A stretch of DNA of 42,673 bases from a virus: positions 1 to 42,673 of IMG/VR virus record IMGVR_UViG_3300032157_000024. One strand, given 5' to 3'. A program made the translations under genes and the position numbers. The notes under the pieces are model-generated. The model was not told where the DNA came from and ran no database searches. It saw only the letters and a list, made by a program, of their open reading frames with translations. The stretch's first letter is position 1. Every line of letters begins with the position of its first letter. Positions 13,208-26,386 of this stretch are shown in pieces.

Positions 13208-13525
13208 AACAGAACCCAACATAGGGGGGCAAAACATGCGAAAGGTATCGGTACGGGCACCCACTCGCAAAGGGGGGCGTGTCTCGGCGTTCCGAGGTCT
13301 ACCCCCCCTCCGGCCGCCTGCCTGCCACGGTCCTGGCGTGCGCGTGCTTAGGCCCACGCCTGCCCATGCCTAGCGCAGTGTTGCGGTCGGGAGACAGGCT
13401 AGCTGGATGCGTGAGTTTACATAATCACATACTGCGCAATGCTTGACCCGGCAGCGCAGGTATCGGCCTGCAATACGTTGCCAGCACGCAACACTAAGCC
13501 TACGTTAGCGAACACTCTCATGCAA

Positions 13526-13712
13526 ACCGTCCCAACCGTCCCATAATAACCATGTTGGGAGTGAGGACAGGGACGATGGGACGTTTAGGGACCTTTGAAA
13601 GTATCAAGCACTACGCGCGATGTGCGCGCACGGGATGTTACCGCAAATGGTCCCTAATGGTCCCAAGGTCCCTAATTTGTGCTGGATCGTCCCTAAAGGC
13701 TGATGGTCCCTT
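13526..13712. repeat. Iteron/operator array built on (C/G)GTCCC(T/A)A
   Basis: ACCGTCCCA occurs twice in tandem (13526-13543). Inverted GGGACG/GGGACC copies lie at 13570, 13578 and 13588. TGGTCCCTAA, TGGTCCCAA and GGTCCCTAA are in tandem (13648-13675). CGTCCCTAA lies at 13688 and TGGTCCCTT at 13704. Confidence 0.75.
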
Positions 13713-13836
13713 GGTTATAAGGCCGAGGCGAATGCTGCGATTTAGTTATAAGGCGGGCTGTAGGTGTTGCTGGCTCGCCACGGATTTGCTTATGTGCTGA
13801 TAGAAACATTTGATAGCGTTGCACGCGTAATGCCTC

Positions 13837-13865
13837 TTGACATATGCGTAGGCGGGGATTACATT
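13837..13865 (+). promoter_or_regulatory. Early promoter TTGACA-17 nt-TACATT
   Basis: A consensus -35 (13837-13842), a 17-nt spacer and TACATT (13860-13865), about 45 nt upstream of the first plus-strand ORF. Confidence 0.6.
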
Positions 13866-13911
13866 GCTATCACGCGCTCAGTGGAGCGCATAACAGCAAC
13901 GGGAGCAGACA

Positions 13912-14076
13912 ATGACATTTCAAGAGGCGCTGGAAGTTTTCAACAACGCGAAAGAAACGGCTTGGGACAAGGCCGCGTTCCCGACGATGAGCGACGAGCA
14001 ACTAGAAGCCGCTCGCAAGGGCTTCCACGCAGGCATCTACCAAGCCGCTCTGGCCTTCAGCAACCGCACCGCCTAA
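13912..14076 (+). CDS. Small early protein (54 aa)
   Basis: GGGAG RBS. Hand translation MTFQEALEVFNNAKETAWDKAAFPTMSDEQLEAARKGFHAGIYQAALAFSNRTA. It is more protein-like than the overlapping 13764..14117 track ORF. Confidence 0.5.
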   Translation: MTFQEALEVFNNAKETAWDKAAFPTMSDEQLEAARKGFHAGIYQAALAFSNRTA

Positions 14077-15365: not shown

Positions 15366-15395
15366 ATCCCTTTCCATTACTCTGGAGCTGACACC

Positions 15396-16025
15396 ATGAA
15401 AACCACTACAAAGCACTGGTCTACCAAACTGCCAGCTACCGCCTGCTCTGAGGCCGTGGGATGGGCGCGCGAGCAACCCTCAGCCGCCGCCGCATGGCGC
15501 ACCTGCAAGCGCGGCGACTGGATGCTCTGGCTTATCACGCAAAAGCTGGAAGATGATCCTGCCTGCGCATCAAGGCGCAAGCTCGCTCTCTGCGTTGCCG
15601 AGATTGGCCGCGAGTCGCTGCAATACGCGGGCGAGTACCGCGCTACGCTCTCCACCGCGTTTGATGCCGTGGAAGCGTGGGGGAATGACGGGGGGTCTCT
15701 GGAACAGTTGAACGCGGCGAGGAGCGCGGCGTGGAGCGCGGCGGAGAGCGCGGCGAGCGCGGCGTGGAGCGCGGCGGAGAGCGCGGAGAGCGCGGCGTGG
15801 AGCGCGGCGGAGAGCGCGGAGAGCGCGGCGAGCGCGGCGAGGAGCGCGGCGGCGAGCGCGGCGAGCGCGGCGAGCGCGGCGAGCGCGGCGAGGAGCGCGG
15901 CGGCGAGCGCGGCGGAGAGCGCGGCGAGCGCGGCGAGCGCGGAGAGCGCGGCGAGGAGCGCGTCCCTTGAAAAGCAAGCAGACATTATCCGTAAGCACTA
16001 TCCGAAACCGCCGAGGTTGAGATGA
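15396..16025 (+). CDS. Ala/Ser/Glu/Trp repeat protein with a globular N-terminal domain
   Basis: 209 aa, TGGAG RBS. The N-terminal domain contains CKRGDWMLWLI. It is followed by about 80 aa of SAA(W/E/A)SAAESA-type repeats, and the protein ends in ...EKQADIIRKHYPKPPRLR. Confidence 0.7.
   Translation: MKTTTKHWSTKLPATACSEAVGWAREQPSAAAAWRTCKRGDWMLWLITQKLEDDPACASRRKLALCVAEIGRESLQYAGEYRATLSTAFDAVEAWGNDGGSLEQLNAARSAAWSAAESAASAAWSAAESAESAAWSAAESAESAASAARSAAASAASAASAASAARSAAASAAESAASAASAESAARSASLEKQADIIRKHYPKPPRLR
15713..15962. repeat. GC-rich imperfect tandem repeat (units built from gcggcg/agcgcg/gagagc/gtggagc) encoding the Ala/Ser repeat
   Basis: The periodicity is directly visible. All six frames stay open across it, which produces several shadow ORFs. 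Confidence 0.9.
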
Positions 16026-16213
16026 ATAACGCACAAGACCCACTCACCGCAGCCCTAGCCCTCATCGGCACGCCACGCGAGCCTGCGCCGTATTCGGTGC
16101 AGGCCGCAGCCGATGCCACGCGCCCGGACGGAACATCGGTCGCCGCATGGCGCATCAAGGTATTTCGCGCCCATCGCAAGCGCACGCAGGCGACGAAGCC
16201 GGAGAGCATTTGA
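16022..16213 (+). CDS. Hypothetical protein (63 aa)
   Basis: ATGA-coupled to the upstream repeat-protein gene. Confidence 0.45.
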   Translation: MNNAQDPLTAALALIGTPREPAPYSVQAAADATRPDGTSVAAWRIKVFRAHRKRTQATKPESI

Positions 16214-16422
16214 CTACCAGGCGCATCTACGTCTACACGCTGGCTATCGAGCTATCCGGCGAGCGCACGGACGACGATGCGCCTGAGCGCATTGCACGCG
16301 AGTTGATGGCAGCGATCCCTGCGCAACTGGACGGGGCTACGCTGCTGGCAGCAGAGGCTACTTATCGGCGCCGTATCGTGGCACAACAGCGTCCGCGAGG
16401 CGTAGGCCGAGGATCACTTTAA
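16210..16422 (+). CDS. Hypothetical protein (about 70 aa, putative TTG start)
   Basis: GGAGAG lies 5 nt upstream of a TTG that overlaps the preceding TGA. The 3' end converges on and overlaps the primase stop. Weak call. Confidence 0.3.
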   Translation: MTTRRIYVYTLAIELSGERTDDDAPERIARELMAAIPAQLDGATLLAAEATYRRRIVAQQRPRGVGRGSL

Positions 16423-18373
16423 CGCCTGACTTCATCACTTGGTAGCCGCGCTCTTTCAGCTTGGTGGTAAAGTTCTTCTGCGATAGCACGTACTCCCCTG
16501 CACCCTCAGCCCATGAGCGGTAGTTAGCGTATAGGTCGCTGGACTTAGCGCGTGCGTTCTGGTCTACCACTGCGTTCGCTTCGATCCATTCGGCTATCAC
16601 GTCCTCGCCTTCGAGGTAGTTTTCCACCGCTTCCATTACCTGCTCTGGCTTGCCTAGCCCCGCATCGCGCCACGCGAGGAACCCATCCATGCACCATTGC
16701 AGGATTTGCGGGTACTCGGTGCGCAGCTTCGCATCGAGATCACGGTCCATATCTTCCTCTGCGACCGGATTGGCGAATTCCAAGATATGCAGGCGGCGGC
16801 GCATCGCTTCGTCTACGTTGCGCAGGCCTGGTATATGGTTCGCGGCCATGAGAATCTTGCCTAACTGGAATTCGAAGCTATTTTCCCGCAGCATCCTCGC
16901 CCGCACAATGTCGCGCCCTGTTAGCTGCTTGATGCGTGCTTCACTCCATCGCTTATTCGAGTCTGTCTCGCTTGCGACGATCATGCGGGCACCTGCAAGG
17001 CTCGCCAATTCCTCGCTATGTCGCTCCATGCGAGATTCCGTGAATACGTCCATGCTCGCCGTGACCGCATAGGTTCCCATCATTTCGCGTAGCGCCGATA
17101 TGAACTTGCTCTTACCGCGCCGCGCAGGGCCAAAGCAAAAAAGCAGTGCTTCCTCGCTATTGTCCCCGGACAGGAAATACCCGCACCAGCGTTGCATGTA
17201 GGCGATCAGGCTATCGTCGCCCTTGCAAATGTGCTGGATGAACTTGAGCCATTGCACTGGCTCGCCACGCTCAGGGGCGACCGCTGTCTGTCGCGTGATG
17301 TAATGCTCTCTTTCAGCCGCGATCACCTTGCCAAGCTTCAGGTCTACCACGCCACCTGGCACGCCAAGCAAGTAGGGGTCAGCGTTGAACTGTGATTCCT
17401 CTGCCGATATGCGCCTGTCGGATGACGTGTTATCGCGCATGTTCCACCAAAACCGCTTGGAACCGATCTTGCGCCTGCCCTCCGGGGTCAGGCTTGCGGC
17501 ATCCGGCCACGATAGCGCCGTGCGGCAGAACTCTATCGAGCGCCGGTCAACCTCTTTTTTGGCATCCGGCTTCCAGTAGCTCCCATCCCATACGAGCCAG
17601 AGATTGCGCGCTGCAACATAGCGCAGGTCATCACATTGCGATGCAGCAAATTCCATCGCCACGTGATCCTCGGACATTTCCGCTGGCAGCGGCTCATCGT
17701 CCGGGTCAGGCTTGCGGGCTGCATTGCCATCGGTTCCGACGATCCCGCCCATGATTGACCTCAGCCGTGGCTTCCTCTTGCCGCCAGGACGCGATTTGGC
17801 GGCCTCTGGCTCATTTTCGTAGGCCGATAATGGTATTTGATGGTCAGGCGGCTGCGACGTTTCTAGCGCATCCTGCGCAATGCTGACATTTCTGTCAGAT
17901 TCGTCAGGTTCGCCACCCTCCGGTGGTGGAGGAGGCACCGGCTCTGCGGCAACCGGCGGGGTCGCCGTAGCTGCTACCGGAGGGGGCGAATGTGGTGCGG
18001 CGGGGGCAGCAGAGTGGGATTCGAACCCACGACCCTCGTCAGCGGAAGTTATAGGCTTCCGGTCAGATGCTCTATCCAGCTGCGCTATCTGCTGTCCCGC
18101 CGCATAGTCTACGGCATGGGCTTTGACCCATGCCTTTATCTCTGTGTCCGTTGCGCCTTCTGGCCAAGGCTCTGGCAGGTAGCGCAGCTTGCCAGCATAC
18201 CCCACCGCATAGGCCGCTATCTCCCCGTCGAGCGCGAATACCTTGCGCCCTTCCAAGCCCTCCCACTCGCCATTGGCAAGCCTTGCTTCGAGCGCCGGAA
18301 ATATCCGCGCCATGAGCGAAAGCTGCTCCTGCGAGTGGCAGATGACTAGCTGCCGCGCCTCCCCGCTTGCCAC
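16358..18373 (-). CDS. Primase/helicase (P4/D5 family: degenerate Toprim-like N-domain, Pro-rich linker, D5_N plus SF3 NTPase)
   Basis: 671-aa open frame. The C-terminal part carries a Walker A motif (FGPARRGKSKF), ...MIVASETD..., and RRRLHILEF, typical of phage/plasmid P4-family primases. A possible internal start lies at 17752 (GAGG RBS). The frame contains a tRNA-like sequence at 18006-18094. Confidence 0.8.
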   Translation of the reverse strand: MASGEARQLVICHSQEQLSLMARIFPALEARLANGEWEGLEGRKVFALDGEIAAYAVGYAGKLRYLPEPWPEGATDTEIKAWVKAHAVDYAAGQQIAQLDRASDRKPITSADEGRGFESHSAAPAAPHSPPPVAATATPPVAAEPVPPPPPEGGEPDESDRNVSIAQDALETSQPPDHQIPLSAYENEPEAAKSRPGGKRKPRLRSIMGGIVGTDGNAARKPDPDDEPLPAEMSEDHVAMEFAASQCDDLRYVAARNLWLVWDGSYWKPDAKKEVDRRSIEFCRTALSWPDAASLTPEGRRKIGSKRFWWNMRDNTSSDRRISAEESQFNADPYLLGVPGGVVDLKLGKVIAAEREHYITRQTAVAPERGEPVQWLKFIQHICKGDDSLIAYMQRWCGYFLSGDNSEEALLFCFGPARRGKSKFISALREMMGTYAVTASMDVFTESRMERHSEELASLAGARMIVASETDSNKRWSEARIKQLTGRDIVRARMLRENSFEFQLGKILMAANHIPGLRNVDEAMRRRLHILEFANPVAEEDMDRDLDAKLRTEYPQILQWCMDGFLAWRDAGLGKPEQVMEAVENYLEGEDVIAEWIEANAVVDQNARAKSSDLYANYRSWAEGAGEYVLSQKNFTTKLKERGYQVMKSGVKVILGLRLADAVVPRYGADK
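18006..18094 (-). other. tRNA-derived element (89 nt) embedded in frame in the primase ORF
   Basis: The minus strand reads CAGCAGA-TA-GCGC-AGCTGGATA-GAGC-A-TCTGAC-CGGAAG-CCTATAA-CTTCCG-CTGACGAGGGTC-GTGGG-TTCGAAT-CCCAC-TCTGCTG-C. This gives a perfect 7-bp acceptor stem, a canonical T-arm and a near-canonical D-arm. The anticodon domain is aberrant: a 6-bp stem with loop CCUAUAA, flanked by CTGAC direct repeats. Confidence 0.6.
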
Positions 18374-18375
18374 AG

Positions 18376-18666
18376 TTAAATCTCCTCGTCTGCCGATCCG
18401 CGTGCGCTAAGGTATAAAAGGTTCACCGATTGCACGAACCTGCGCTCGCTGCCCCTTGGAAATGGGCAGGAGTGCATCATTTCGAACCGCTGCTGCTTCG
18501 TGGCAAGCGCATACCTGAGCCTTAGTTCAGCATCCTGCGCACGCTTGAGCCACGCATCGCCCCACGCTAACGCTTCCTCAATGGTGCGAATCTCCACTTC
18601 CTCACGCTGGCTATTGCCGTGGTTGACCGTATTACCGTTGCCAAGCTGCACGGTATTGCCGCTCAT
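18376..18666 (-). CDS. Hypothetical protein (96 aa from the internal ATG)
   Basis: MSGNTVQLGNGNTVNHGNSQREEVEIRTIEEALAWGDAWLKRAQ... No clear RBS, so the start is uncertain (the track ORF extends to 18714). Confidence 0.45.
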   Translation of the reverse strand: MSGNTVQLGNGNTVNHGNSQREEVEIRTIEEALAWGDAWLKRAQDAELRLRYALATKQQRFEMMHSCPFPRGSERRFVQSVNLLYLSARGSADEEI

Positions 18667-18797
18667 CGCGCCGATGTATGTCCGAACCGCAGGGCACCAG
18701 CGCAAGCAGACCACAGCCTTTTAGCCAGTTGCCACCTGGCACTAGGGAACGCAGCTTCCTGCCTCATCCGATTGGCGTCAAAACTTCCACCACTGCG

Positions 18798-18841
18798 CCC
18801 CACAACCGCCGCTGTAGAAATTATTTCTGCGACGGGTGGGG
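18798..18841 (-). other. Composite 18-bp hairpin (three stacked helices) in an intergenic region
   Basis: CCCCAC/GTGGGG, CGCCGC/GCGACG (C-A on the plus strand, G-U on the minus-strand RNA) and AGAAAT/ATTTCT. It lies just downstream of the 18845 stop on the minus strand. Confidence 0.6.
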
Positions 18842-18844
18842 CCG

Positions 18845-19057
18845 CTAAAAAGGGCGCAGAGCAATCTCCACGCGATCCAGCTTGTCAGTGTAGTCCTGCG
18901 GGATAGCCCTTGCCGCGAGCATCATCGCCTCTTTATCGTTGTTAGACAAGACTCTGGTTACATCCACGATAAGCACAGACTTAGGCGCTTCTCCGCGTTC
19001 CTTCTGGTCTTTCGTCGGAAGCGGGTTGTAGATCACAGCGTATTCGTACAGTTTCAT
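18845..19057 (-). CDS. Conserved-looking hypothetical protein (70 aa)
   Basis: Strong RBS (aaggagaacgaaATG). Sequence: MKLYEYAVIYNPLPTKDQKERGEAPKSVLIVDVTRVL...VEIALRPF. Confidence 0.65.
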   Translation of the reverse strand: MKLYEYAVIYNPLPTKDQKERGEAPKSVLIVDVTRVLSNNDKEAMMLAARAIPQDYTDKLDRVEIALRPF

Positions 19058-19071
19058 TTCGTTCTCCTTGG

Positions 19072-19590
19072 TTAACCCTCAATGATTGCTCGTGCATCGT
19101 CCACCGATACGGCAAAGCCTGCGCGATGCCCTTTCTTGGCTAGTAGCATCAGGTACGCCGCTTGCTCGCGCTCGCGGTCATCCTTTGGCTTTTTCCATAG
19201 CCGATTTTTTGCTTCAATCGCAAACAGCCTGCCGTCCAATAGCATCCCCATGATGTCAGGCAGTCGCATTTTCTCAGGTCGAACGATCCAATCATAGAAG
19301 TTGACTGGTGCCCACTTGCCTGATTTTGCTTCATAGCTCGCGCTGCCACTGTTCTGCCTCCATGCGATGAGGACATTCGGATGGCTACCCACAAACTCTG
19401 CAATCTCCGCCATTACTCCGTCAGGCCCAAGCTCCGCAATGTCAGGATTTTGCGCTGCCCTGTGCTTCACTGGCGCAATCACTGTCTGATTCTGAGGCTC
19501 TACCCCTGCAAGCGCAGCGTAGAACCTATCTGCTTTGTTGGCGTCAGCATACCGCTCGCGCAGGGTCTTGGGCCTACTTGGGCGGCGCAT
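19072..19590 (-). CDS. VRR-NUC domain nuclease
   Basis: 172 aa. ...PDIMGMLLDGRLFAIEAKNRLWKKPKDDREREQAAYLMLLAKKGHRAGFAVSVDDARAII matches the D...(E/D)xK plus Q..w...l...G core pattern of VRR-NUC. Confidence 0.65.
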   Translation of the reverse strand: MRRPSRPKTLRERYADANKADRFYAALAGVEPQNQTVIAPVKHRAAQNPDIAELGPDGVMAEIAEFVGSHPNVLIAWRQNSGSASYEAKSGKWAPVNFYDWIVRPEKMRLPDIMGMLLDGRLFAIEAKNRLWKKPKDDREREQAAYLMLLAKKGHRAGFAVSVDDARAIIEG

Positions 19591-19816
19591 TGTCGGTTTC
19601 TTCTAGTGCCTTAATCTCAGCAGCCAAGTTCGCCAAGTCTTTGTGATGCGTCATGGCGAGCCATCTATTTTTTTCCTCATATCTCTTTTTTAAGTCGCCT
19701 AACCGACGCTCTCTGTCGTGCTTTGCGCAAAAATACATTCCATCGTAATCGGCAAATGATTTCGCAACAGGCATTTCCTCTCCGCACACATCGCAGCTAA
19801 CTATAACAGCGCCCAT
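19574..19816 (-). CDS. Hypothetical Cys-containing (zinc-ribbon-like) protein (80 aa)
   Basis: CDVCGEEM...FCAKHD pattern, in operon context. Confidence 0.5.
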   Translation of the reverse strand: MGAVIVSCDVCGEEMPVAKSFADYDGMYFCAKHDRERRLGDLKKRYEEKNRWLAMTHHKDLANLAAEIKALEETDNAPPK

Positions 19817-19980
19817 TATGCGACCCTCCCGCGCTTTGGCTTTGGCCCACCGACCTTCGCAAACTTGTACGTGCCGCGCTCGATAGCAGCAAGGATGCGC
19901 TCACCTAGCGCGGTGATGAACAGCATCCGAGACTTGCCGCCGACTGGACGGCCTATCTTACGGCGCTTTGAACTTGCCAT
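19816..19980 (-). CDS. Small basic protein (54 aa)
   Basis: Hand translation MASSKRRKIGRPVGGKSRMLFITALGERILAAIERGTYKFAKVGGPKPKRGRVA. TAATG junction with the next gene. It overlaps 19958..20143 by 23 nt. Confidence 0.35.
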   Translation of the reverse strand: MASSKRRKIGRPVGGKSRMLFITALGERILAAIERGTYKFAKVGGPKPKRGRVA

Positions 19981-20143
19981 TTTTCATTTTCCATTGTTTC
20001 CAGTAATTTACTAGCCGCGCCTTTTCTTTGCGAGCCTCTACGCCCTTCATTGCGAAGGCTCGGCGCTGCGCCTTAGTGGACTTGGCCCAACGCTTGCGGC
20101 CAGCTTGTCGGAAGAACTCTTTTGCTGCTGCGGATAGCTTCAT
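19958..20143 (-). CDS. Small basic protein (61 aa), first gene of the minus-strand replication operon, probably leaderless
   Basis: MKLSAAAKEFFRQAGRKRWAKSTKAQRRAF... There is no RBS, and the promoter -10 element ends 8 nt upstream of the ATG. Confidence 0.5.
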   Translation of the reverse strand: MKLSAAAKEFFRQAGRKRWAKSTKAQRRAFAMKGVEARKEKARLVNYWKQWKMKNGKFKAP

Positions 20144-20151
20144 GTCGGCGT

Positions 20152-20179
20152 ATTATGCACATATCCAGAATCATTGCAA
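20152..20179 (-). promoter_or_regulatory. Promoter TTGCAA-16 nt-CATAAT for the minus-strand operon
   Basis: Read on the minus strand. The -10 element (20157..20152) lies 8 nt from the ATG at 20143. Confidence 0.45.
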
Positions 20180-20190
20180 GAACGGGCTTG

Positions 20191-20220
20191 TTGACAAGGG
20201 GCTTGAACCGTGCCTATACT
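20191..20220 (+). promoter_or_regulatory. Promoter TTGACA-18 nt-TATACT for plus-strand early operon 2
   Basis: A consensus -35 (20191-20196) and TATACT (20215-20220), about 28 nt upstream of the ATG at 20249. Confidence 0.6.
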
Positions 20221-20248
20221 CCGCCGTCAACTCAGCAAGGGGAATGAA

Positions 20249-20362
20249 ATGAACGACGACAACGACAGCTTCCAGATCGTGCCCGGCGACCTCGCGGTGC
20301 TGCTGCTCGCCGCGCTGGTGATCGTGTGCGGCATCTTCAGAGATTTGCTGAGGCTCGTATGA
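20249..20362 (+). CDS. Small membrane protein (37 aa)
   Basis: GGGGAA RBS. MNDDNDSFQIVPGDLAVLLLAALVIVCGIFRDLLRLV contains one predicted TM helix. ATGA-coupled to the next gene. Confidence 0.45.
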   Translation: MNDDNDSFQIVPGDLAVLLLAALVIVCGIFRDLLRLV

Positions 20363-20649
20363 GCGACAAGCCGATCAGCGTTGGCGACTTGGTGATGGTG
20401 GTTCGCCCAACTTCCTGTTGCGGCAATAGTAAAAATATCGGGGCAGTATTCATTGTTGATGATATTTTAATTAACGTTGGCGAATGTGCTTACTGCTCAA
20501 TAAAAGAGGCGGTCGCGTGCGCCTTTGAGCCTAACTGGAAGTACGGAATGGGCGCATACTCCTTGAATCGCCTCAAGCGCATCGACCCTGACTGCCTGCG
20601 CGACGATGTTCGCGAAGCCGAGAAGCTGCCGACGAAGGAGCCAGCATGA
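20359..20649 (+). CDS. Hypothetical protein (96 aa)
   Basis: ATGA coupling at both ends. It contains a visibly AT-rich patch (20420-20510). Confidence 0.55.
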   Translation: MSDKPISVGDLVMVVRPTSCCGNSKNIGAVFIVDDILINVGECAYCSIKEAVACAFEPNWKYGMGAYSLNRLKRIDPDCLRDDVREAEKLPTKEPA

Positions 20650-20840
20650 CCACGCGCTACTGCGTAGACTGCAAGCATTATTGCTCGCCTAGTTTGCTGC
20701 AATGGGCTTCGAGCATTGGCCCGTTCTGCTCGCATCCGGTAGCACTCAGTCCTGTGGATGGCAGCGCGAGCAGTGAATGCTTACACATGCGCCGCATGAG
20801 CGACTGCGGCCCCGATGCGAAACTGTGGGAGGCGAAATGA
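20646..20840 (+). CDS. Cys-rich hypothetical protein (64 aa)
   Basis: ATGA coupling. Contains CVDCKHYC...FCSH... Confidence 0.5.
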   Translation: MTTRYCVDCKHYCSPSLLQWASSIGPFCSHPVALSPVDGSASSECLHMRRMSDCGPDAKLWEAK

Positions 20841-21001
20841 ACGACTTTGGCGCTGGATTTCTATGCGTTTGTCTTTTAGCTCTTTGCTTTTTTGCTGGAT
20901 ACATTGTTGGCAGTTTTAGTGTATTCAATGATTGCAAAAACTACTCTGCTTCCGTTCAAGGAAACTACCGGATAGAGTGCAAATATGTGGGGCCGAAATG
21001 A
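20837..21001 (+). CDS. Small membrane protein (54 aa)
   Basis: ATGA coupling. MNDFGAGFLCVCLLALCFFAGYIVGSF... contains a TM helix. Confidence 0.5.
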   Translation: MNDFGAGFLCVCLLALCFFAGYIVGSFSVFNDCKNYSASVQGNYRIECKYVGPK

Positions 21002-21234
21002 AAGACGGCGGATCGGCGTTTCCTGCGCTTAACTTCATAGTGCCCTCTGACCTTGAGGAGCGCCATGTTCGGGCGCTTGGTAAGACGCAAGGAATGACCC
21101 TGCGCGACTACTTCGCGGCGGCTGCTATGCAAGCGCACATTGCAGGCGGCATTACGAACGGAATACTTGCTGCGGAATCCTCTTACCGATATGCAGACGC
21201 CATGCTTGCCGAGCGCGAGAAGGAGCGCACATGA
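20998..21234 (+). CDS. Hypothetical phage protein (78 aa)
   Basis: ATGA coupling. The GGSAFP...GMTLRDYFAAAAM motif is common in small phage proteins. Confidence 0.55.
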   Translation: MKDGGSAFPALNFIVPSDLEERHVRALGKTQGMTLRDYFAAAAMQAHIAGGITNGILAAESSYRYADAMLAEREKERT

Positions 21235-21464
21235 GCACGCCACGCCAGCCGCGCCTGCGCCTGGTCGTAGCAGAGCGCCCGCTTGCGAAACTCTCCTATG
21301 CCGAGAAACTTGCGCACGCCAAGGCGTACCTGCAACGTCGCGGGAAGTACGTCCTAGACCGTGGCACGCCGAAGCCGAACTGGGGAATCCCGTTCGATCA
21401 ACAGCCAAGAGAGTCGCGGCTCGCGCAAATCATCAAGGACGCAGACCGCAGGGGGACGAAATGA
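21231..21464 (+). CDS. Hypothetical protein (77 aa)
   Basis: ATGA coupling at both ends. Confidence 0.5.
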   Translation: MSTPRQPRLRLVVAERPLAKLSYAEKLAHAKAYLQRRGKYVLDRGTPKPNWGIPFDQQPRESRLAQIIKDADRRGTK

Positions 21465-21790
21465 CCGACCTTGAGCTAACGAGGCTGTGCGCGGCGGCGA
21501 TGGGCCTGTCCTATGAGGAATTTGGCGCAGGAGATAAAGCGGAGTTGATGATTCCGAGGTGGCCGACTGCAACCGCGCACGTCATGCGATATGACCCACT
21601 CCACGACGACGCGCAGGTGATGGCGCTGGTGAAGAAATTGGGGTTGCAGATTAGCTATTATCGAACAGCGAACAAACCTGATTGGCGGGCTGTCTCCAAT
21701 GATGGATTGCACAGCGTCCATCATAAAAACCTCAATCGCGCGATCTGCGTGTGCGCCGCAGAGACGCAGGCACGAAGGGGGGCGAAATGA
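21461..21790 (+). CDS. Hypothetical protein, DUF2591-like (109 aa)
   Basis: MTDLELTRLCAAAMGL...YDPLHDDAQVMALVKKLGL...NLNRAICVCAAE resembles the DUF2591 phage family pattern, from memory. Confidence 0.5.
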   Translation: MTDLELTRLCAAAMGLSYEEFGAGDKAELMIPRWPTATAHVMRYDPLHDDAQVMALVKKLGLQISYYRTANKPDWRAVSNDGLHSVHHKNLNRAICVCAAETQARRGAK

Positions 21791-22083
21791 TCGTCAGCAA
21801 CGAGCAGGGGCTTAACGAGCAGCGCAGGCAGCAGGAAGAATGCGCCTGCACGCCATCGACAGACCTGTTCTCCCTGTGCGCCGATTGCTATAACCGCGCA
21901 TGGGCGGCAGGCAACGCTCTCATCGAGCGCGACCGCGCAAAGCCGTGGCCTGACTACGATACCAGCACAGACCTTGCGCCAGATGGCCGCAACATCGCAT
22001 ACTGGAACCGCAGCGTCATCGCGCCGCAGATGCGCCAGAACGCAGAGATTACCGAACGCACCAGACCGAAAAAAGGAGGCTAG
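21787..22083 (+). CDS. Hypothetical protein (98 aa)
   Basis: ATGA coupling upstream. Confidence 0.5.
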   Translation: MIVSNEQGLNEQRRQQEECACTPSTDLFSLCADCYNRAWAAGNALIERDRAKPWPDYDTSTDLAPDGRNIAYWNRSVIAPQMRQNAEITERTRPKKGG

Positions 22084-22086
22084 ACC

Positions 22087-22884
22087 ATGACTACCGCAAT
22101 CGTGCCGTTAGGGGAAATGGACCGCATGGCAGACGCCATCGCCAAGTCAGGCTTGTTCGGCATGAAAACCAAGGACCAGGCACTTGCGCTGATGATCGTC
22201 GCGCAGGCCGAGAATCGGCACCCCGGTTCCGTCGCTGCCGAGTACCATATCATTCAAGGCCGACCCGCGCTCAAGGCCGATGCGATGCTCGCCCGCTTTC
22301 AGCAGGCAGGTGGCGTCGTCGAGTGGGCTGACTACACCGACAAGAAGGTTTCCGGCCACTTCTCGCACTCGGTCAACTCGCCAAAGCCGGTCCTGATCGA
22401 ATGGACAATCGATCAGGCGGCGAAGGCCGGGCTTACGAACAAGGACACATGGAAGAACTACCCGCGCCAGATGCTCCGCGCTCGGGTAATCTCCGAAGGC
22501 GTGCGTACCGTCTACCCTGCGGTAGCGGTAGGGGTCTACACGCCCGAAGAAGTGGCAGACTTCGAGCCTGCTGGCGCACAGCGCGGCAGACCGCGCAAGG
22601 AAAGAGACATGGGCGACGCGGAAATCGTCGCTGACGAACGGGCCTCCGGCAGCACTCCTCCCCCGCCTCCTGCGGATATTCCCCCCGCTAAGGCCGCTGC
22701 CGGAGCGCCCTCTGATGGCAAGTCTCGTGCCGACATCCTGCGCGAGCTTTGCGTGCCTGCTCGCATGACGGTATCGGCAATCCTGCTCAAAGCTGGCGTT
22801 GCGACCGCAGACGAACTGAGCGCCGAGGACTTCGATGACGCCTGCGCCATGCTGCGGCGCAAGGCTGCGAAGGTGGTCGCGTGA
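22087..22884 (+). CDS. recT: RecT-family single-strand annealing recombinase
   Basis: 265 aa. ...IAKSGLFGMKTKDQALALMIVAQAENRHPGSVAAEYHIIQGRPALKADAMLARF...TWKNYPRQMLRARVISEGVRTVYPAVAVGVYTPEE matches the RecT core pattern. Confidence 0.75.
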   Translation: MTTAIVPLGEMDRMADAIAKSGLFGMKTKDQALALMIVAQAENRHPGSVAAEYHIIQGRPALKADAMLARFQQAGGVVEWADYTDKKVSGHFSHSVNSPKPVLIEWTIDQAAKAGLTNKDTWKNYPRQMLRARVISEGVRTVYPAVAVGVYTPEEVADFEPAGAQRGRPRKERDMGDAEIVADERASGSTPPPPPADIPPAKAAAGAPSDGKSRADILRELCVPARMTVSAILLKAGVATADELSAEDFDDACAMLRRKAAKVVA

Positions 22885-23090
22885 GTGGCAGCATAGTCAA
22901 CATAGATGCCGTGCGTAAGCTTTTCCCTGAGACTTGGACGCACGTTCACAATCTTGACTGGCTGCGCATCGGCTTCGGGCTGAAACTGCATGGCGTAGAG
23001 TGGAGATCATTGCCAGAAGCGTTGACAAGATGCGAACTCGCAGGGATCGTTCAGCGCGACGGATACACGATCCGTAGGAAACCATGCTAG
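22881..23090 (+). CDS. Hypothetical protein (69 aa, GTG start)
   Basis: GTGA coupling to recT. Confidence 0.45.
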   Translation: MSGSIVNIDAVRKLFPETWTHVHNLDWLRIGFGLKLHGVEWRSLPEALTRCELAGIVQRDGYTIRRKPC

Positions 23091-23239
23091 GCGGCATTTT
23101 GTGCTGGCTTCTGCGCAGGAATCGGTGGGGGCGCAAGACTTACCTTCCGTGCCACGGTGGAACGGTCAAACCGCACAAAATATGCGCCCGCTGCGGCAAG
23201 GTGCGCGAGGTCAGGCCGAGGAAAAGGAGCGCGACGTGA
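23084..23239 (+). CDS. Small zinc-ribbon-like ORF (51 aa)
   Basis: Hand translation MLGGILCWLLRRNRWGRKTYLPCHGGTVKPHKICARCGKVREVRPRKRSAT. It fills the gap between neighbouring genes with overlapping stop and start codons. Weak call. Confidence 0.3.
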   Translation: MLGGILCWLLRRNRWGRKTYLPCHGGTVKPHKICARCGKVREVRPRKRSAT

Positions 23240-23592
23240 CGCTGACGGTTTCTCTGCCAGGTGTTGGCGACTCCAAGGTCATCACGCTCGAATCGCGTGG
23301 TCGTCCGTACTTCAAGAGCGACGGATGCCGCCACCTTTCCATCATCGTGCGCCGCGAATTGACGACCGTTGAATGCCGCGATTGCGGCGAGAAAAACCTA
23401 AACCCGGTGGACTGGATTCACACGATGATCGAGGAATGGTATCGGGTCAAAGACCTCCATTTGCGGTACGAACAAGCACAAAAGAGATTCGACGCCAAGC
23501 AACGCTGCCGATGCGAACACTGCAACAAGATTACTAGAGTGCGACCAGCAACAGCCGCAGAAGTCCGCCAAATGGAGGCATCTAAGCCATGA
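23236..23592 (+). CDS. Cys-rich hypothetical protein (118 aa, GTG start)
   Basis: A strong AAGGAG lies 6-7 nt upstream of the GTG at 23236. The track ORF (23101..) extends upstream without an RBS. Contains CRDCGEK...CRCEHCNK. Confidence 0.55.
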   Translation: MTLTVSLPGVGDSKVITLESRGRPYFKSDGCRHLSIIVRRELTTVECRDCGEKNLNPVDWIHTMIEEWYRVKDLHLRYEQAQKRFDAKQRCRCEHCNKITRVRPATAAEVRQMEASKP

Positions 23593-23852
23593 CCGCCCTA
23601 CTGGACGAAATCCGCAGAGTTCGGGAACTTGCGGAGAAGGCGACGCCGTACAGCGGCGCGGAGCGCGAATTGCTCTACGAACGCGCCTGGCTCATGGACA
23701 AGTACGGAGCCGAGATTGAGGCGGCGGTGAGGGATGCGGAGCGGTATGGGTGGCTGCGTGACGCGCACGATTGCGACTGGAACAACCTTCTACGAGATGG
23801 CGGTGCTCAGATGGATCACAACATCGACGCAGCCATGAAGGCCCGGACATGA
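23589..23852 (+). CDS. Hypothetical protein (87 aa)
   Basis: ATGA coupling at both ends. Confidence 0.5.
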   Translation: MTALLDEIRRVRELAEKATPYSGAERELLYERAWLMDKYGAEIEAAVRDAERYGWLRDAHDCDWNNLLRDGGAQMDHNIDAAMKART

Positions 23853-24040
23853 AGCCTCTCACGGAAGATGAATGGAACATGCTCGACTACTTCTGGCAGG
23901 AGAAGGGCGACTTGACGCGCTGGTGCGGATGGGAGAAGTTCGTTGCCGAAAATCCGACGCATCCGATTGTAGAGGCGTGGGCAAGGAGAGTTTCAGCGGA
24001 AGAAACAGTCACCCTGATCCTGCGCGGGAGCAGGCCATGA
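23849..24040 (+). CDS. Hypothetical protein (63 aa)
   Basis: ATGA coupling at both ends. Confidence 0.5.
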   Translation: MKPLTEDEWNMLDYFWQEKGDLTRWCGWEKFVAENPTHPIVEAWARRVSAEETVTLILRGSRP

Positions 24041-24219
24041 AGCTCACAAACAAGCAGAGGGTGCTGCGGAGGTGGCCGAAGTCCGCTTTTTGCGCCGGAT
24101 GCTATGGAATTCATAAAGTGTGGAATCCGCTGCGATCTTCTAAGCTTATTGGCTACGGAACGACAGCGCATAGTGCCTGGGCCTCCGCCGCCCGCAACCT
24201 TACGAGGGCGATATTGTAG
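24037..24219 (+). CDS. Hypothetical protein (60 aa), last gene of early operon 2
   Basis: ATGA coupling upstream. Confidence 0.45.
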   Translation: MKLTNKQRVLRRWPKSAFCAGCYGIHKVWNPLRSSKLIGYGTTAHSAWASAARNLTRAIL

Positions 24220-24236
24220 TTGCCGTACCAAATTAA

Positions 24237-24425
24237 CTAACGCGATGGTGTGCTGCATAGCGCAGGACCGCCAGCATTGCCGCTATGCAGACATTTGGCG
24301 ACTTCACCAGTCCGGGTATCAAGTCTCCATACCATCTCAGTGCTAGGCATGGCGGCAATCTGATACCTGCCGTTGTCGCATCCTGTTAGTAGAACAATCC
24401 CTAGCCCAGCAAGTATCAATTTCAT
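24237..24425 (-). CDS. Small lipoprotein (62 aa)
   Basis: MKLILAGLGIVLLTGCDNG... is a signal peptide with lipobox LLTGC. RBS agagggagaacgaATG. Confidence 0.65.
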   Translation of the reverse strand: MKLILAGLGIVLLTGCDNGRYQIAAMPSTEMVWRLDTRTGEVAKCLHSGNAGGPALCSTPSR

Positions 24426-24708
24426 TCGTTCTCCCTCTGGATGAGCCCCTGTTTTCTACAGAGGTTTCTGCGGATACTGTAAACTTGTACATGTCCCCGG
24501 AATGCCTACCCCAACCTGTAGGGAAAACAGAAAGAGGGCCTCTATTGGGACGAAGGGCGCCCCAGGTATTCCTAAGTCTTTGGAAGTTCTGGATAAGGGA
24601 ACAACTGAAGGCAGTGTCGTCGTCACCCCACAGTTAGTGGCTTTATCTGCCATAAAAACAGGTGTACAAACTGTTTTCGATCAATAGCATGTAGCGATGA
24701 GTTCAGTA

Positions 24709-24737
24709 CAAAAAAGAAGACCGCCTGGAAGGCGGTC
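24709..24737 (-). terminator. Rho-independent terminator (minus strand)
   Basis: A 7-bp stem GACCGCC/GGCGGTC with a 5-nt loop, followed on the minus strand by TTCTTTTTTG. Confidence 0.5.
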
Positions 24738-24752
24738 CGTAGTCCAGCTTTA

Positions 24753-24844
24753 CCGGTGGTAGCTCAGTTAGGAGGCCGTCAGAAGCCCTAGAGAGCACCG
24801 GATTCGTAATCCGGAGGTCGGGGGTTCAAATCCCTCCCGCCGGG
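24753..24844 (+). tRNA. tRNA-Thr(CGU) with a ~19-nt insertion in the D-loop
   Basis: Acceptor stem CCGGTGG/CCGCCGG. Anticodon arm CCGGA-TTCGTAA-TCCGG (anticodon CGT). Variable loop AGGTC. T-arm GGGGG-TTCAAAT-CCCTC. The D-arm is GCTC...GAGC but with a 27-nt loop (agttaggaggccgtcagaagccctaga). Confidence 0.7.
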
Positions 24845-24853
24845 CCGTACTTC

Positions 24854-24891
24854 AGGCCGGGCCTGTTAACGCAGGCTCGGCCTTCTTTTTT
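24854..24891 (+). terminator. Rho-independent terminator after the tRNA
   Basis: Stem AGGCCGGGCCTG/CAGGCTCGGCCT followed by TCTTTTTT. Confidence 0.7.
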
Positions 24892-24982
24892 CCTCTGGGA
24901 CCGAGGATTAGACCCCTCGCTCCAGAGACGATCAATACCCGCTACCTATAGCGTTATTCGGTAACGCAACCACTACATATGG

Positions 24983-25021
24983 AGCCTAGTCTAGGCTGTG
25001 GCTAATTGTATGTCAATTAGC
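24983..25021. promoter_or_regulatory. Two palindromic operators upstream of the RHH gene
   Basis: AGCCTAG-t-CTAGGCT (24983-24997) and GCTAATTG-tatgt-CAATTAGC (25001-25021). Confidence 0.55.
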
Positions 25022-25037
25022 TACACTCTGCCCCCCT

Positions 25038-25247
25038 ATGGCTCGCCACACTCCCAAGAGCTACCGACTCCCCGGGCACCAGGTTCAGTTCATTCAGGAG
25101 CTGAAGGGCTTGGAGGTATTTGGGACCAAAGAAGCGGACATCGTGCGAAGCCTGATTCAATACGCCATGAACGAAATGAACAGGACGCACTACATCGAGA
25201 CCCACTTTAAGGGTCTGGAGATGCTGAAGAAGGGTCGGTCTGCGTAG
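25038..25247 (+). CDS. Small ribbon-helix-helix-like DNA-binding protein (69 aa)
   Basis: The N-terminus, MARHTPKSYRLPGHQVQFIQELKGLEVFGTKEADIVRSLIQYAMNEM, fits a beta-strand plus two-helix (CopG/Arc-like) pattern. No obvious RBS. Confidence 0.45.
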   Translation: MARHTPKSYRLPGHQVQFIQELKGLEVFGTKEADIVRSLIQYAMNEMNRTHYIETHFKGLEMLKKGRSA

Positions 25248-25324
25248 GTTCTAACGTGGCGGGTAGTGCTGGCCCACTGGCCGGTGGATACAACCAGCAC
25301 TACCCTGTCCCACGACTTGCAAGT

Positions 25325-26287: not shown

Positions 26288-26288
26288 G

Positions 26289-26377
26289 TGCAAGCATCCT
26301 TTCCTAAAATAATGCTTGCATCCTACCCCCGTCCGGCGCACAATGCAAGCATCGATTCTGAGCCACATGCTTGCAGG
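26289..26377. promoter_or_regulatory. Array of four ATGC(A/T)(A/T)GCAT palindromic sites in a divergent intergenic region
   Basis: TGCAAGCATCC (26289), ATGCTTGCATCC (26312), ATGCAAGCATCG (26343) and ATGCTTGCAGG (26367), lying between the P63C start and the transposase start. Confidence 0.65.
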
Positions 26378-26386
26378 GAGCCTCAA

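Follow-up and report, generated by a model that had tools for sequence, protein, structure and literature searches.

In the window, by which we mean the whole 42,673-nt stretch of viral DNA analyzed here (IMG/VR record IMGVR_UViG_3300032157_000024), the coding region for a 671-aa helicase includes an in-frame segment of 89 nt that derives from a tRNA-Arg(UCU)-type gene. We give a probability of roughly 60% to the reading in which this gene was inserted once and has since been tolerated as linker-coding sequence, without acting as a decoder. Feature coordinates are collected in Table 1.

A tRNA-derived element in a helicase gene

Read on the minus strand from 18094 to 18006, the element is CAGCAGA-TA-GCGC-AGCTGGATA-GAGC-A-TCTGAC-CGGAAG-CCTATAA-CTTCCG-CTGAC-GA-GGGTC-GTGGG-TTCGAAT-CCCAC-TCTGCTG-C. 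The preliminary description had noticed a tRNA-derived sequence in frame within a replication-protein ORF and proposed ARAGORN and Infernal/Rfam searches, and both call a tRNA at this site. Over model positions 1-71 of Rfam RF00005 (gathering score 29 bits) the element reaches 36.2 bits, with an E-value of 4e-4 that refers to the whole window, both strands and all families; ARAGORN places a tRNA at 18004-18094 (-) with an uninterpretable anticodon ('cgga'). ARAGORN -m returned no tmRNA on the element, and no Rfam family besides tRNA matched in the whole window at E <=5; an identity as tmRNA, as YrlA or as another tRNA mimic in Rfam was rejected on zero matches.

Fifteen of the 16 pairs in the canonical arms are intact. 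The acceptor stem (7/7) and the T-stem (5/5, closing a TTCGAAT loop) stand as first described, whereas the D-stem pairs at 3/4 positions, its G12-A23 mismatch having gone unmentioned. U8, A14, G18, G19, G15-C48 and G53-C61 are all kept, in agreement with the RF00005 arms; a 3' CCA is not encoded. The resemblance is well beyond chance, as had been claimed: when the acceptor and anticodon arms are left out, the D-arm (20 nt) and the variable loop with the T-arm (22 nt) share 41 of their 42 nucleotides with cellular tRNA-Arg(UCU), the comparison set being 19 genomic genes from Opitutales, Bacteroidales and Lactobacillus. The shared positions include A20 in the D-loop, an identity element for ArgRS. 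From this match, the parental tRNA was one of Arg(UCU) type and not an Ile tRNA. The acceptor-stem sequence occurs in no collection searched.

Table 1. Positions in the window of the helicase gene, the tRNA-derived element and its flanking repeats
Feature	Position	Strand	Basis
tRNA-Arg(UCU)-derived element, 89 nt	18006..18094	-	ARAGORN, Rfam 36.2 bits, 41/42 D/T-arm identity
Acceptor stem of element	18088-18094 / 18007-18013	-	within tRNA-derived element
D-arm of element	18069-18085	-	within tRNA-derived element
T-arm of element	18014-18030	-	within tRNA-derived element
Discriminator C of element	18006	-	within tRNA-derived element
Remodelled anticodon arm, 32 nt (tRNA norm 17)	18036..18067	-	sequence, Infernal alignment
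Hairpin CGGAAG-CCUAUAA-CUUCCG in remodelled arm	18043-18061	-	perfect 6-bp stem
CTGAC direct repeats bracketing the hairpin	18062-18066 and 18038-18042	-	sequence
671-aa ORF: N-terminal alpha/beta domain, linker, D5_N + SF3 helicase	16358..18373	-	ORF, Pfam, PHROG, Foldseek, homologues
GAGGAG ribosome-binding site, 8 nt upstream of GTG start 18373	18382..18387	-	sequence
TAA stop of upstream gene	18376-18378	-	sequence
N-domain coding sequence, aa 1-93	18095..18373	-	alignment with relatives, AlphaFold2
Low-confidence linker, aa 95-222, opening with tRNA-encoded peptide	17708..18091	-	AlphaFold2, alignment
GTG start of JGI/IMG gene call (526-aa P0001), just 3' of tRNA	17936..17938	-	coordinates computed from length
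Internal ATG after GAGG, inside basic motif conserved in relatives	17750..17752	-	sequence, alignment
5' arm (UGCGGCGGG) of 9-bp inverted repeat extending acceptor stem	18096..18104	-	repeat search, MFE fold
3' arm (CCCGCCGCA) of 9-bp inverted repeat extending acceptor stem	17996..18004	-	repeat search, MFE fold
N-domain segment complementary (14/15) to tRNA positions 3-17	18175..18189	-	repeat search
Second stem-closed module (module B), just downstream of tRNA: ~15-bp closing stem (UUCGCCCCCUCCGGU / ACCGGAGGGUGGCGAA) around two hairpins	17909..17990	-	repeat search, fold

The host protein had been labeled a primase/helicase, and the first half of that label has to be dropped. Pfam assigns D5_N (PF08706, 1.6e-17), DUF5906 (PF19263, 2e-7) and, weakly, Pox_D5; Foldseek relates the 671-aa protein to ASFV C962R and the poxvirus D5/E5 helicases, with E down to 2e-9; and D5_N is followed by an SF3 P-loop ATPase, the arrangement of a D5_N/SF3 helicase. 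PHROG families named 'primase' match through their C-terminal halves alone, from about position 330 onward, and neither Pfam nor PHROG detects zf-CHC2, Toprim or PrimPol in aa 1-193. As no primase domain is detected, we describe the protein as a D5_N plus SF3 helicase. Its N-domain is predicted by AlphaFold2 as a confident beta-alpha-beta-beta-alpha-beta-alpha fold (block-mean pLDDT 78-90 over aa 11-90), matches no Pfam or PHROG family and shows no conserved DxD motif when aligned with relatives. The Toprim-like label proposed earlier for aa 1-93, a fold with a conserved Glu and a DxD motif, is a tentative one. Linker residues 95-222 have pLDDT below 50 in the same model and are likely disordered.

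Three relatives (P0002, P0003 and P0004; 625-632 aa) share 54-59% identity with the window protein and a fourth (P0011; 629 aa) shares 40%, with 98-99% of the ORF covered. In all four, N-domain, linker and D5_N/SF3 helicase form a single protein, the linker sequence varies, and the tRNA-encoded peptide of the window protein aligns as an insertion. Neither their loci nor 60 further IMG/VR loci with related helicases, taken with up to 3 kb of flank per side, contain a tRNA, which means that the helicase gene works without the element. No helicase homologues were found between 59% and 100% identity, and the 90% cluster has just one further member, which is this very sequence recovered in a different assembly. 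On these comparisons the insertion is a one-off, specific to this lineage.

Searches for a parental or second copy found none. The exact T-arm with acceptor and the exact 5' half are not in IMG/VR, nor is the D-arm/T-arm pattern; JGI metagenomes and 185,579 species-representative genomes contain no instance of the gapped acceptor/T-loop pattern; when 50,697 phage records were searched by blastn, generic tRNA-arm matches came up and nothing more; and the 19-mer of the anticodon hairpin is missing from JGI metagenomes and has a single match elsewhere, a chance one within coding DNA of no relation (PEAYNFR). A shallow literature search turned up no earlier description of a phage replication gene with a tRNA inside it. 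ARAGORN reports a second odd tRNA in the window; an inserted element common to both was considered and rejected, local alignment of the two being nonsignificant (258/5000 shuffles).

As conserved repeats, tRNAs are places where metagenome assemblers can mis-join, but a chimera or other assembly artefact is scarcely credible here: the sequences on either side of the element are parts of one gene, with the order and reading frame that relatives show, and an independent Logan assembly of run SRR9694912 includes a contig of 11,270 nt that matches window positions 15906-27175 with 100% identity. It is also quite unlikely that the element is an attachment-site relic, either the scar of a tRNA-targeting integrative element or the attP of the phage itself. 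Genes for tRNAs are classic integrase targets, and the CTGAC repeats and inverted-repeat flanks resemble traces of recombination; against this, the 37 window ORFs of at least 200 aa include a RecT-like annealing protein only and no integrase or similar recombinase, a whole cloverleaf is present where attP usually comprises the 3' part of a tRNA, the acceptor stem with this T-loop is missing from every one of the species-representative genomes, and the site would lie inside an essential-looking gene.

The anticodon arm and the open frame

The 671-aa ORF reads straight through the element, as first reported, and the first nucleotide of the tRNA falls on a codon boundary. Frame 0 alone is open; frames 1 and 2 contain two and three stops, respectively. 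A canonical tRNA-Arg(UCU) carries stops in all three frames (in frame 0 a UAA at tRNA positions 36-38, in the two other frames TAG), and the same stops reappear when the arms of the window element are joined to a canonical anticodon arm. Remodelling of the anticodon arm has added 15 nt, exactly five codons, which keeps the phase and removes the UAA, the sole stop in frame 0. Since an intact Arg(UCU) tRNA is closed in every frame, the survivor is the version with the rewritten anticodon arm; the remaining cloverleaf, which by chance has no stop in frame 0, could therefore be left unchanged.

The remodelled arm corresponds to what had been described, a 6-bp hairpin with the loop CCUAUAA, CTGAC repeats and 6 and 12 unpaired nt on its two sides, and it departs far from the standard 5-bp stem and 7-nt loop. 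The Rfam alignment has 28 nt here against 13 in the model, Infernal pairs just 2 bp and skips 28 nt, and the ARAGORN models contain mismatches or a 7-nt 'intron'. The loop agrees with the CUUCUAA of tRNA-Arg(UCU) at five of seven positions, with C35 changed to A, so that the UCU anticodon is gone. With an arm nearly twice the normal length (32 versus 17 nt) and its unpaired stretches, the cloverleaf geometry for decoding has been lost. Two structural classes that might have accommodated the surplus were rejected: a short intron of archaeal type with a bulge-helix-bulge, for UCUGA lacks a complementary stem and an endolysin marks the phage as bacterial, and a type II tRNA with a long variable arm, which would leave six surplus nt 5' of the hairpin.

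These features bear directly on the proposal, raised in the preliminary description, that a working tRNA is released from the helicase transcript, whether an AUA/Ile decoder with anticodon UAU or some other odd decoder. The score above the Rfam gathering cut-off, the resemblance of CCUAUAA to an anticodon loop and the frequency with which phages carry tRNAs, the window itself holding another, would be in keeping with such a molecule, yet we judge it highly improbable. Between D-stem and T-stem there is an excess of 15 nt, 6 and 7 unpaired nt connect the hairpin, position 33 is C, ARAGORN yields only forced, poor models, and Arg(UCU)-type arms are combined with the loss of C35, an Arg identity base. 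The would-be leader and trailer are base-paired to one another, no promoter-like site occurs in the flanking 1.8 kb, and an essential mRNA would be severed and thrown out of frame if the 89 nt were removed.

It had further been suggested that two genes, one for the N-domain and one for the helicase, were wrongly merged across a tRNA gene because the 671-aa frame is open by accident. The JGI/IMG gene call, which gives a 526-aa product from GTG 17938 on the 3' side of the tRNA, would suit this arrangement, as would internal start codons whose ribosome-binding sites are weak or moderate, among them the GAGG-N6-ATG at 17752 that had been pointed out and does exist, and homologues without the N-domain (P0005). 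We nevertheless consider two genes very unlikely. The protein is continuous and has an identical domain order in the four relatives, the N-domain lacks a stop codon of its own, the sole stop-free frame joins the two conserved domains while the total length keeps the phase, and the anticodon arm is altered precisely at the would-be stop. A strong GAGGAG site precedes GTG 18373, and the Logan gene caller gives the full 671-aa product. We infer that the full-length protein is produced; its read-through region would yield the tryptic peptides IAQLDR, KPITSADEGR and GFESHSAAPAAPHSPPPVAATATPPVAAEPVPPPPPEGGEPDESDR.

Among the options raised at the outset, then, the one that the evidence favors is a tRNA relic serving as linker-coding sequence. 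We posit that a duplicate of an Arg(UCU)-type tRNA gene, possibly together with short flanks (about 108-109 nt in total), entered the boundary between N-domain and linker a single time, in this phage lineage only, and came to be translated as some 30-36 linker residues (..AAGQQIAQLDRASDRKPITSADEGRGFESHSAAPAA..). Rewriting of the anticodon arm from 17 to 32 nt would have moved the loop UAA out of frame and restored the phase. The order of these events is a reconstruction. Two ATA codons and one AGA codon, rare ones whose relative synonymous codon usage lies below 0.4, occur in the element, and going by these it is not adapted as coding sequence. The preliminary description did not include the Arg(UCU) parentage, the stop-codon logic, the 9-bp repeat, the lack of a primase domain or the second odd tRNA.

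Flanking repeats and a possible role in cis

The acceptor stem is extended by a perfect 9-bp inverted repeat that forms part of the minimum-free-energy fold, and 9 bp was reached in none of 20,000 flank shuffles. Within the N-domain coding sequence, a segment complementary to the 5' half of the tRNA at 14 of 15 positions is matched by 2 of 300 codon-shuffled flanks (p ~0.007) and is absent from the homologous DNA of the relatives. The 9-bp flank and the 15-nt anti-5'-half segment are non-random, which suggests that something acts on nucleic-acid structure here. In folding calculations the 5' part of the ORF as a whole is more stable than its synonymous resamples; for the N-domain coding sequence, z is -3.25 against such resamples (controls -0.65 +/- 0.88), and a 301-nt region has z -5.3, compared with -0.5 to -1.2 for the equivalent region in three relatives. 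The segment 17900-17995, around module B, folds at -49.2 kcal/mol, with z -4.8 against dinucleotide shuffles and a marginal -1.9 against synonymous resamples; the tRNA with its flanks is likewise marginal on the latter comparison (z -2.0). A replication origin in the linker was considered and rejected: there are no iterons, GC skew is uninformative and the relatives are unstructured there.

In the insertion history that we favor, the 9-bp helix would tie up what in a tRNA gene is the 5' leader and the 3' trailer, making the element a poor substrate for RNase P and sparing the helicase mRNA. Bacterial RNase P contacts the single-stranded leader and the 3' RCCA, and cleavage by a plant protein-only RNase P is impaired by acceptor-stem extensions (PMC4797305). 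The helix could protect the transcript against RNase P.

Alternatively, the tRNA-like fold could be kept for a function in cis, in the helicase mRNA or the DNA, with the encoded peptide incidental. Such an element could act as (i) a regulated processing site for RNase P, RNase Z or, on a 17-layer stem, RNase III, (ii) an inter-domain translational pause, or (iii) a switch between the cloverleaf and the anti-5'-half pairing. Intact acceptor, D and T arms with conserved tertiary nucleotides, the perfect acceptor extension, the upstream complementarity peculiar to this window and the folding of the 301-nt region and of the N-domain coding sequence all point in this direction, and with arms so nearly flawless and a new hairpin that is perfect, a neutral relic must be very recent, or else the RNA structure is selected. 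Set against this are the absence of the element from all relatives and from the 60 further loci; the lack of a second copy to show conservation or covariation; the marginal z values of module B and of the tRNA with its flanks; a genome-wide frequency of inverted repeats about twice that expected; and template-switch mutation at quasi-palindromes, which could make the flank without selection. A function in cis is therefore a possibility that we hold tentatively, at well below even odds. A more specific version is more doubtful still: the cloverleaf would be a maintained tRNA mimic, its ends locked by the 9-bp leader-trailer helix and its 5' half able to pair instead with the upstream segment, through which the phage controls in cis either mRNA cleavage (by RNase P, RNase Z or RNase III) or ribosome transit from N-domain to helicase, or else a non-decoding decoy for host enzymes that target tRNAs, with the same nucleotides still coding for linker. 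If true, a DNA phage would have a dual-use element, at once coding and tRNA-like.

Significance and comparison with known systems

As a translated insertion, the element is a curiosity of genome evolution and not a working tRNA, and it offers a clean natural case of a tRNA gene captured into a phage protein-coding sequence. The logic is readable: a canonical tRNA-Arg(UCU) is closed in all three frames, and the sole remodelled part is the part needed to reopen one. The case also poses a potential conflict between tRNA-processing enzymes and the translation of an essential mRNA, with the leader-trailer helix as a candidate protective adaptation, and exposes an annotation pitfall, one gene call having cut the gene to 526 aa after the tRNA and another having given 671 aa. 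It is a single occurrence without relatives, which restricts how much it matters in general unless the RNA turns out to have a function.

The host protein shares its D5_N and SF3 modules with P4 alpha, poxvirus D5/E5 and ASFV C962R, but in place of the primase domain of the D5_N/SF3 primase-helicases it has a 93-aa alpha/beta domain without a family match. The lambda replication origin lies within the O initiator gene, in the part that encodes the linker, and the window likewise has a structured element where the linker of a phage replication protein is encoded; this one is tRNA-derived, has neither iterons nor an AT-rich tract, and occupies a region that is unstructured in relatives. tRNA-like structures are known within longer RNAs, at the 3' ends of plant viruses, in MALAT1 mascRNA and in bacterial operon mRNAs cleaved by RNase P. 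The element resembles them as an acceptor/T-arm mimic embedded in a longer transcript, which could recruit tRNA enzymes. Those structures, however, are noncoding, conserved and shown to be processed or aminoacylated, whereas the phage element is coding and unique and has its ends locked in a helix.

Cellular and phage-borne tRNA-Arg(UCU) genes have in common with the element the D-arm with A20, the variable loop, the T-arm and a 7-bp acceptor. The element differs from them in its 32-nt anticodon arm without UCU, in an acceptor-stem sequence absent from all collections searched, in the missing CCA and the paired leader and trailer, and in being translated within a protein gene. In eukaryotes, tRNA-derived SINEs have been exonized, so that tRNA-derived repeats are recruited into coding exons. 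The phage element differs from these in being a single copy instead of a repeat family, with a whole cloverleaf where those have a decayed fragment, and in having no evident retrotransposition machinery, and it shares with exonized tRNA pseudogenes and repeats the derivation of codons from tRNA sequence and their tolerance in a nonstructured region of the protein.

A tRNA cloverleaf within a single helicase gene

Read on the minus strand from 18094 to 18006, the tRNA-derived element is CAGCAGA UA GCGC AGCUGGAUA GAGC A UCUGAC CGGAAG CCUAUAA CUUCCG CUGAC GA GGGUC GUGGG UUCGAAU CCCAC UCUGCUG C; its first tRNA nucleotide coincides with a codon boundary of the 671-aa ORF, which reads through it. 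ARAGORN calls a tRNA with an undefined anticodon at 18004-18094 (-); its models fit the acceptor, D and T arms well but have to force the anticodon region, with an anticodon of 4 bases or an "intron" of 7 nt. The Rfam tRNA model matches the element end to end, skipping 28 nt where the model has 13, and its 36.2 bits (E = 4e-4 for the whole window) exceed the gathering score of 29. Both programs thus detect the tRNA, and the claim of the preliminary description that such a segment lies in frame inside a replication-protein ORF is borne out. Its account of the arms holds for the acceptor stem (7/7 pairs) and the T-stem (5/5, loop UUCGAAU), but only 3 of the 4 D-stem pairs form (G12-A23 being the exception). 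U8, A14, G18, G19, G15-C48 and G53-C61 are retained, and CTGAC direct repeats lie on both sides of the anticodon-region hairpin.

The host of the element is one gene. Pfam places D5_N at aa 248-382 and DUF5906, the SF3 P-loop, at aa 415-526, with a weak Pox_D5 match; the sole PDB sequence match is ASFV C962R, and Foldseek with the AlphaFold2 model retrieves C962R and the poxvirus D5/E5 helicases. PHROG "primase" families match through their C-terminal halves only, and no primase domain was detectable, so that the earlier primase/helicase label keeps only its helicase part. No family match was found for aa 1-93, and the AlphaFold2 block-mean pLDDT is 78-90 over aa 11-90 of this N-domain and below 50 for residues 95-222. 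Four homologues span 98-99% of the ORF (P0002, P0003 and P0004, 54-59% identity, 625-632 aa; P0011, 40%, 629 aa). They share the N-domain and the helicase with the window protein, and in their alignment ..GQQIAQLDRASDRKPITSADEGRGFESHSAAP.. is an insertion found only in the latter, where a variable Pro/Ala-rich linker begins. The GTG start at 18373 has GAGGAG 8 nt before it and is immediately preceded by the TAA of the upstream gene. The two public gene calls on this identical DNA disagree, JGI/IMG giving 526 aa from GTG 17938, just beyond the tRNA (P0001), and Logan the full 671 aa (P0117), as if tRNA calls truncated a real ORF.

Features in and around the tRNA-derived element and elsewhere in the window
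Feature	Position	Strand	Remark
Helicase ORF	16358-18373	-	671 aa
tRNA-derived element	18006-18094	-	89 nt
Perfect 9-bp inverted repeat	18096-18104 and 17996-18004		extends acceptor stem after one A-C mismatch
15-nt segment	18175-18189		in conserved N-domain coding sequence; 14/15 complementary to tRNA positions 3-17
Second stem-closed module (module B)	17909-17990	-	directly 3' of element, in Pro-rich linker coding sequence
Hairpin	18113-18134		in N-domain coding sequence
tRNA-Thr(CGU), better cloverleaf	24753-24844	+	
Sugar-modification block	2234-6845	-	
GC-rich tandem array	15713-15962		
Inverted-repeat cluster	13377-13920		
Coat-protein ORF	41874-42596	-	

Parentage and reading frame

A pattern in which just two parts were fixed, the D-arm and the segment comprising variable loop and T-arm, retrieved 19 genomic tRNAs, from Opitutales/Verrucomicrobia, Bacteroidales and Lactobacillus, every one a tRNA-Arg with the anticodon loop CUUCUAA. 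Outside the acceptor and anticodon arms the element is identical to these genes at 41 of 42 positions (the sole difference is U12 to G); it shares U27-C28 and G42-A43 with the Opitutales versions, and its hairpin loop, CCUAUAA, agrees with CUUCUAA at 5 of 7 positions. Judged by these arms, the parent is an Arg(UCU)-type tRNA. Exact and gapped patterns for this tRNA matched nothing in IMG/VR, 185,579 species (one genome each) or JGI metagenomes. In phage records blastn found generic arm similarity only, and the 19-mer of the anticodon-region hairpin had a single match, by chance, in coding DNA. Neither ARAGORN nor Rfam found a tRNA in five relatives' contigs (L001-L005, ~44 kb phages with SU10-type portals and Sf6-type small terminases), nor was one present at 60 IMG/VR loci with related helicases (flanks up to 3 kb each side): this is a one-off insertion. 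An independent Logan assembly reproduces the sequence, its contig from SRR9694912 being 100% identical to the window over 11,270 nt, and an assembly artefact is therefore scarcely credible.

Of the three frames across the element, only frame 0 is free of stops; frame 1 is interrupted by TAG and TAA, and frame 2 by TAG and two TGA. In the same register, a canonical Arg(UCU) tRNA has stops in every frame, a UAA formed by U36-A37-A38 of the anticodon loop in frame 0 and a TAG in the D-arm in frames 1 and 2; the element's own arms combined with a canonical anticodon arm are likewise closed in all frames. Its actual anticodon arm measures 32 nt against the canonical 17, and the additional 15 nt, exactly five codons, put the UAA of the loop out of frame while bringing the 3' half and the helicase back into phase. 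The ORF needed change exactly at the cloverleaf's only non-canonical part, which in our view argues for selection on the reading frame rather than on decoding. The hairpin may be (i) the old arm with ~7 and 8 nt added on its sides or (ii) newly inserted between what is left of the old stem, and the surrounding CTGAC repeats may be a trace of this rebuilding. Because it contains rare codons (ATA twice, AGA once), the element is not adapted as coding sequence.

We posit, with a probability of about 0.6, that a copy of a tRNA-Arg(UCU) gene was inserted once into the linker-coding region of the helicase gene and, its anticodon arm having been remodelled, survives as translated linker and not as a decoder. 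Among the earlier readings, this favors the relic exapted as linker code; the att-site scar offered as its possible origin is quite improbable, given the whole cloverleaf, no matching host tRNA and no integrase among the 37 ORFs scanned. Two genes wrongly merged across an intervening tRNA are very unlikely, since relatives encode the fused protein and the frame arithmetic opposes it, and a working AUA decoder is more doubtful still in view of the anticodon-arm geometry and the cost of excision from the helicase mRNA.

RNA structure around the element

Acceptor stem and inverted repeat together make a 17-layer helix; the span 17996-18103 measures 108 nt, or 36 codons. Nine base pairs at that position arose in 0 of 20,000 shuffled 30-nt flanks, and perfect 9-bp inverted repeats are ~2x as frequent genome-wide as expected (57 vs 29 ± 7). 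Bacterial RNase P requires that the leader be single-stranded and base-pairs with the 3' RCCA, and a plant protein-only RNase P cleaves less efficiently or at the wrong place when the acceptor stem is extended (PMC4797305); the leader-trailer helix would therefore be expected to protect the helicase mRNA against processing as a tRNA.

The complementarity of the 15-nt segment was matched in 2 of 300 codon-shuffled flanks and is improved by G12, the sole departure from the canonical D-stem; the segment is window-specific, with no counterpart in homologous DNA of relatives, and may be the footprint of a template switch or offer the RNA an alternative pairing. The fold of 17900-18200 (301 nt) has a z of -5.3, against -0.5 to -1.2 for the equivalent regions of three relatives. 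Module B has a ~15-bp closing stem and two internal hairpins, whereas the linkers of relatives are without structure, and 17900-17995 folds at -49.2 kcal/mol (z -4.8 vs dinucleotide shuffles). Against synonymous-codon resamples the excess is smaller: -2.0 for the tRNA plus flanks, -1.9 for module B and -3.25 for the N-domain coding sequence (18104-18373 (-)), with -0.65 ± 0.88 in 12 control segments. This extra structure could reflect selection on RNA structure; it could equally be the product of quasi-palindrome template-switch mutation, an established kind of mutational mechanism. Intact arms and non-random complementarities would suit a maintained cis-acting tRNA-like RNA, which we nonetheless consider unlikely, as no relative has the element. 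The hairpin in the N-domain coding sequence has 8-9 bp (GGCAUGGGU..GCCCAUGCC) and on the plus strand forms a terminator-like site followed by TTTATCT.

Genomic setting and precedent

The window is a P22/SU10-like podophage contig encoding a P22-type portal and coat, an SU10 adaptor, a small terminase, an endolysin, a RecT-like protein and a VRR-NUC-like nuclease. Its 37 scanned ORFs showed no integrase, reverse transcriptase, primase or polymerase. The coat-protein ORF aligns with no more of the Pfam P22 coat-protein profile (423 positions) than positions 176-423. The gene probably begins upstream of the first start codon in this ORF or runs past the contig end, and the contig may therefore represent a genome that is permuted or incomplete. 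The sugar-modification block encodes a DegT/DnrJ aminotransferase, two NAD-dependent epimerase/dehydratases and a TPP-dependent enzyme, and differs from the set in the relative L003 (E1_dh, transketolase-like, SIS, PfkB, cytidylyltransferase). The tandem array (repeat periods of 9-12 nt and also of 33/63 nt; ~21-25 copies; GC 0.66, GC skew locally positive) lies where long ORFs are open on both strands (15396-16025 + and 15377-15985 -), the plus-strand one encoding SAAxSAA-type repeats. Perfect 9-bp inverted repeats reach their highest density in the window, 8 seeds within 1 kb, in the cluster that separates the small-terminase gene from the next leftward genes; this stretch, without an ORF of at least 120 aa, may have a role in regulation or packaging or be an origin.

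The other tRNA, Thr(CGU), lies outside every ORF of at least 120 aa, between hairpins that by eye are terminator-like. ARAGORN and Rfam call it at 24776-24846, where the acceptor is mismatched (5/7) and the D-arm is poor; the better cloverleaf, which is the minimum-free-energy fold, has acceptor CCGGUGG/CCGCCGG (7/7), U8, A9 and D-stem GCUC/GAGC, and its 27-nt D-loop carries an extra ~16-18-nt hairpin (AGGAGGCCGUCAGAAGCCCU) sequestering G18 and G19. Both tRNA-like genes of the phage therefore have an extra 15-18-nt hairpin; the two inserts show no significant similarity to each other (258 of 5000 shuffles).

To our knowledge, translation of an entire tRNA cloverleaf as part of a phage replication gene has not been described, and shallow literature searches turned up no example. 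The element nevertheless represents one event of a familiar general type, in which a tRNA-derived insertion or pseudogene is co-opted as coding sequence.
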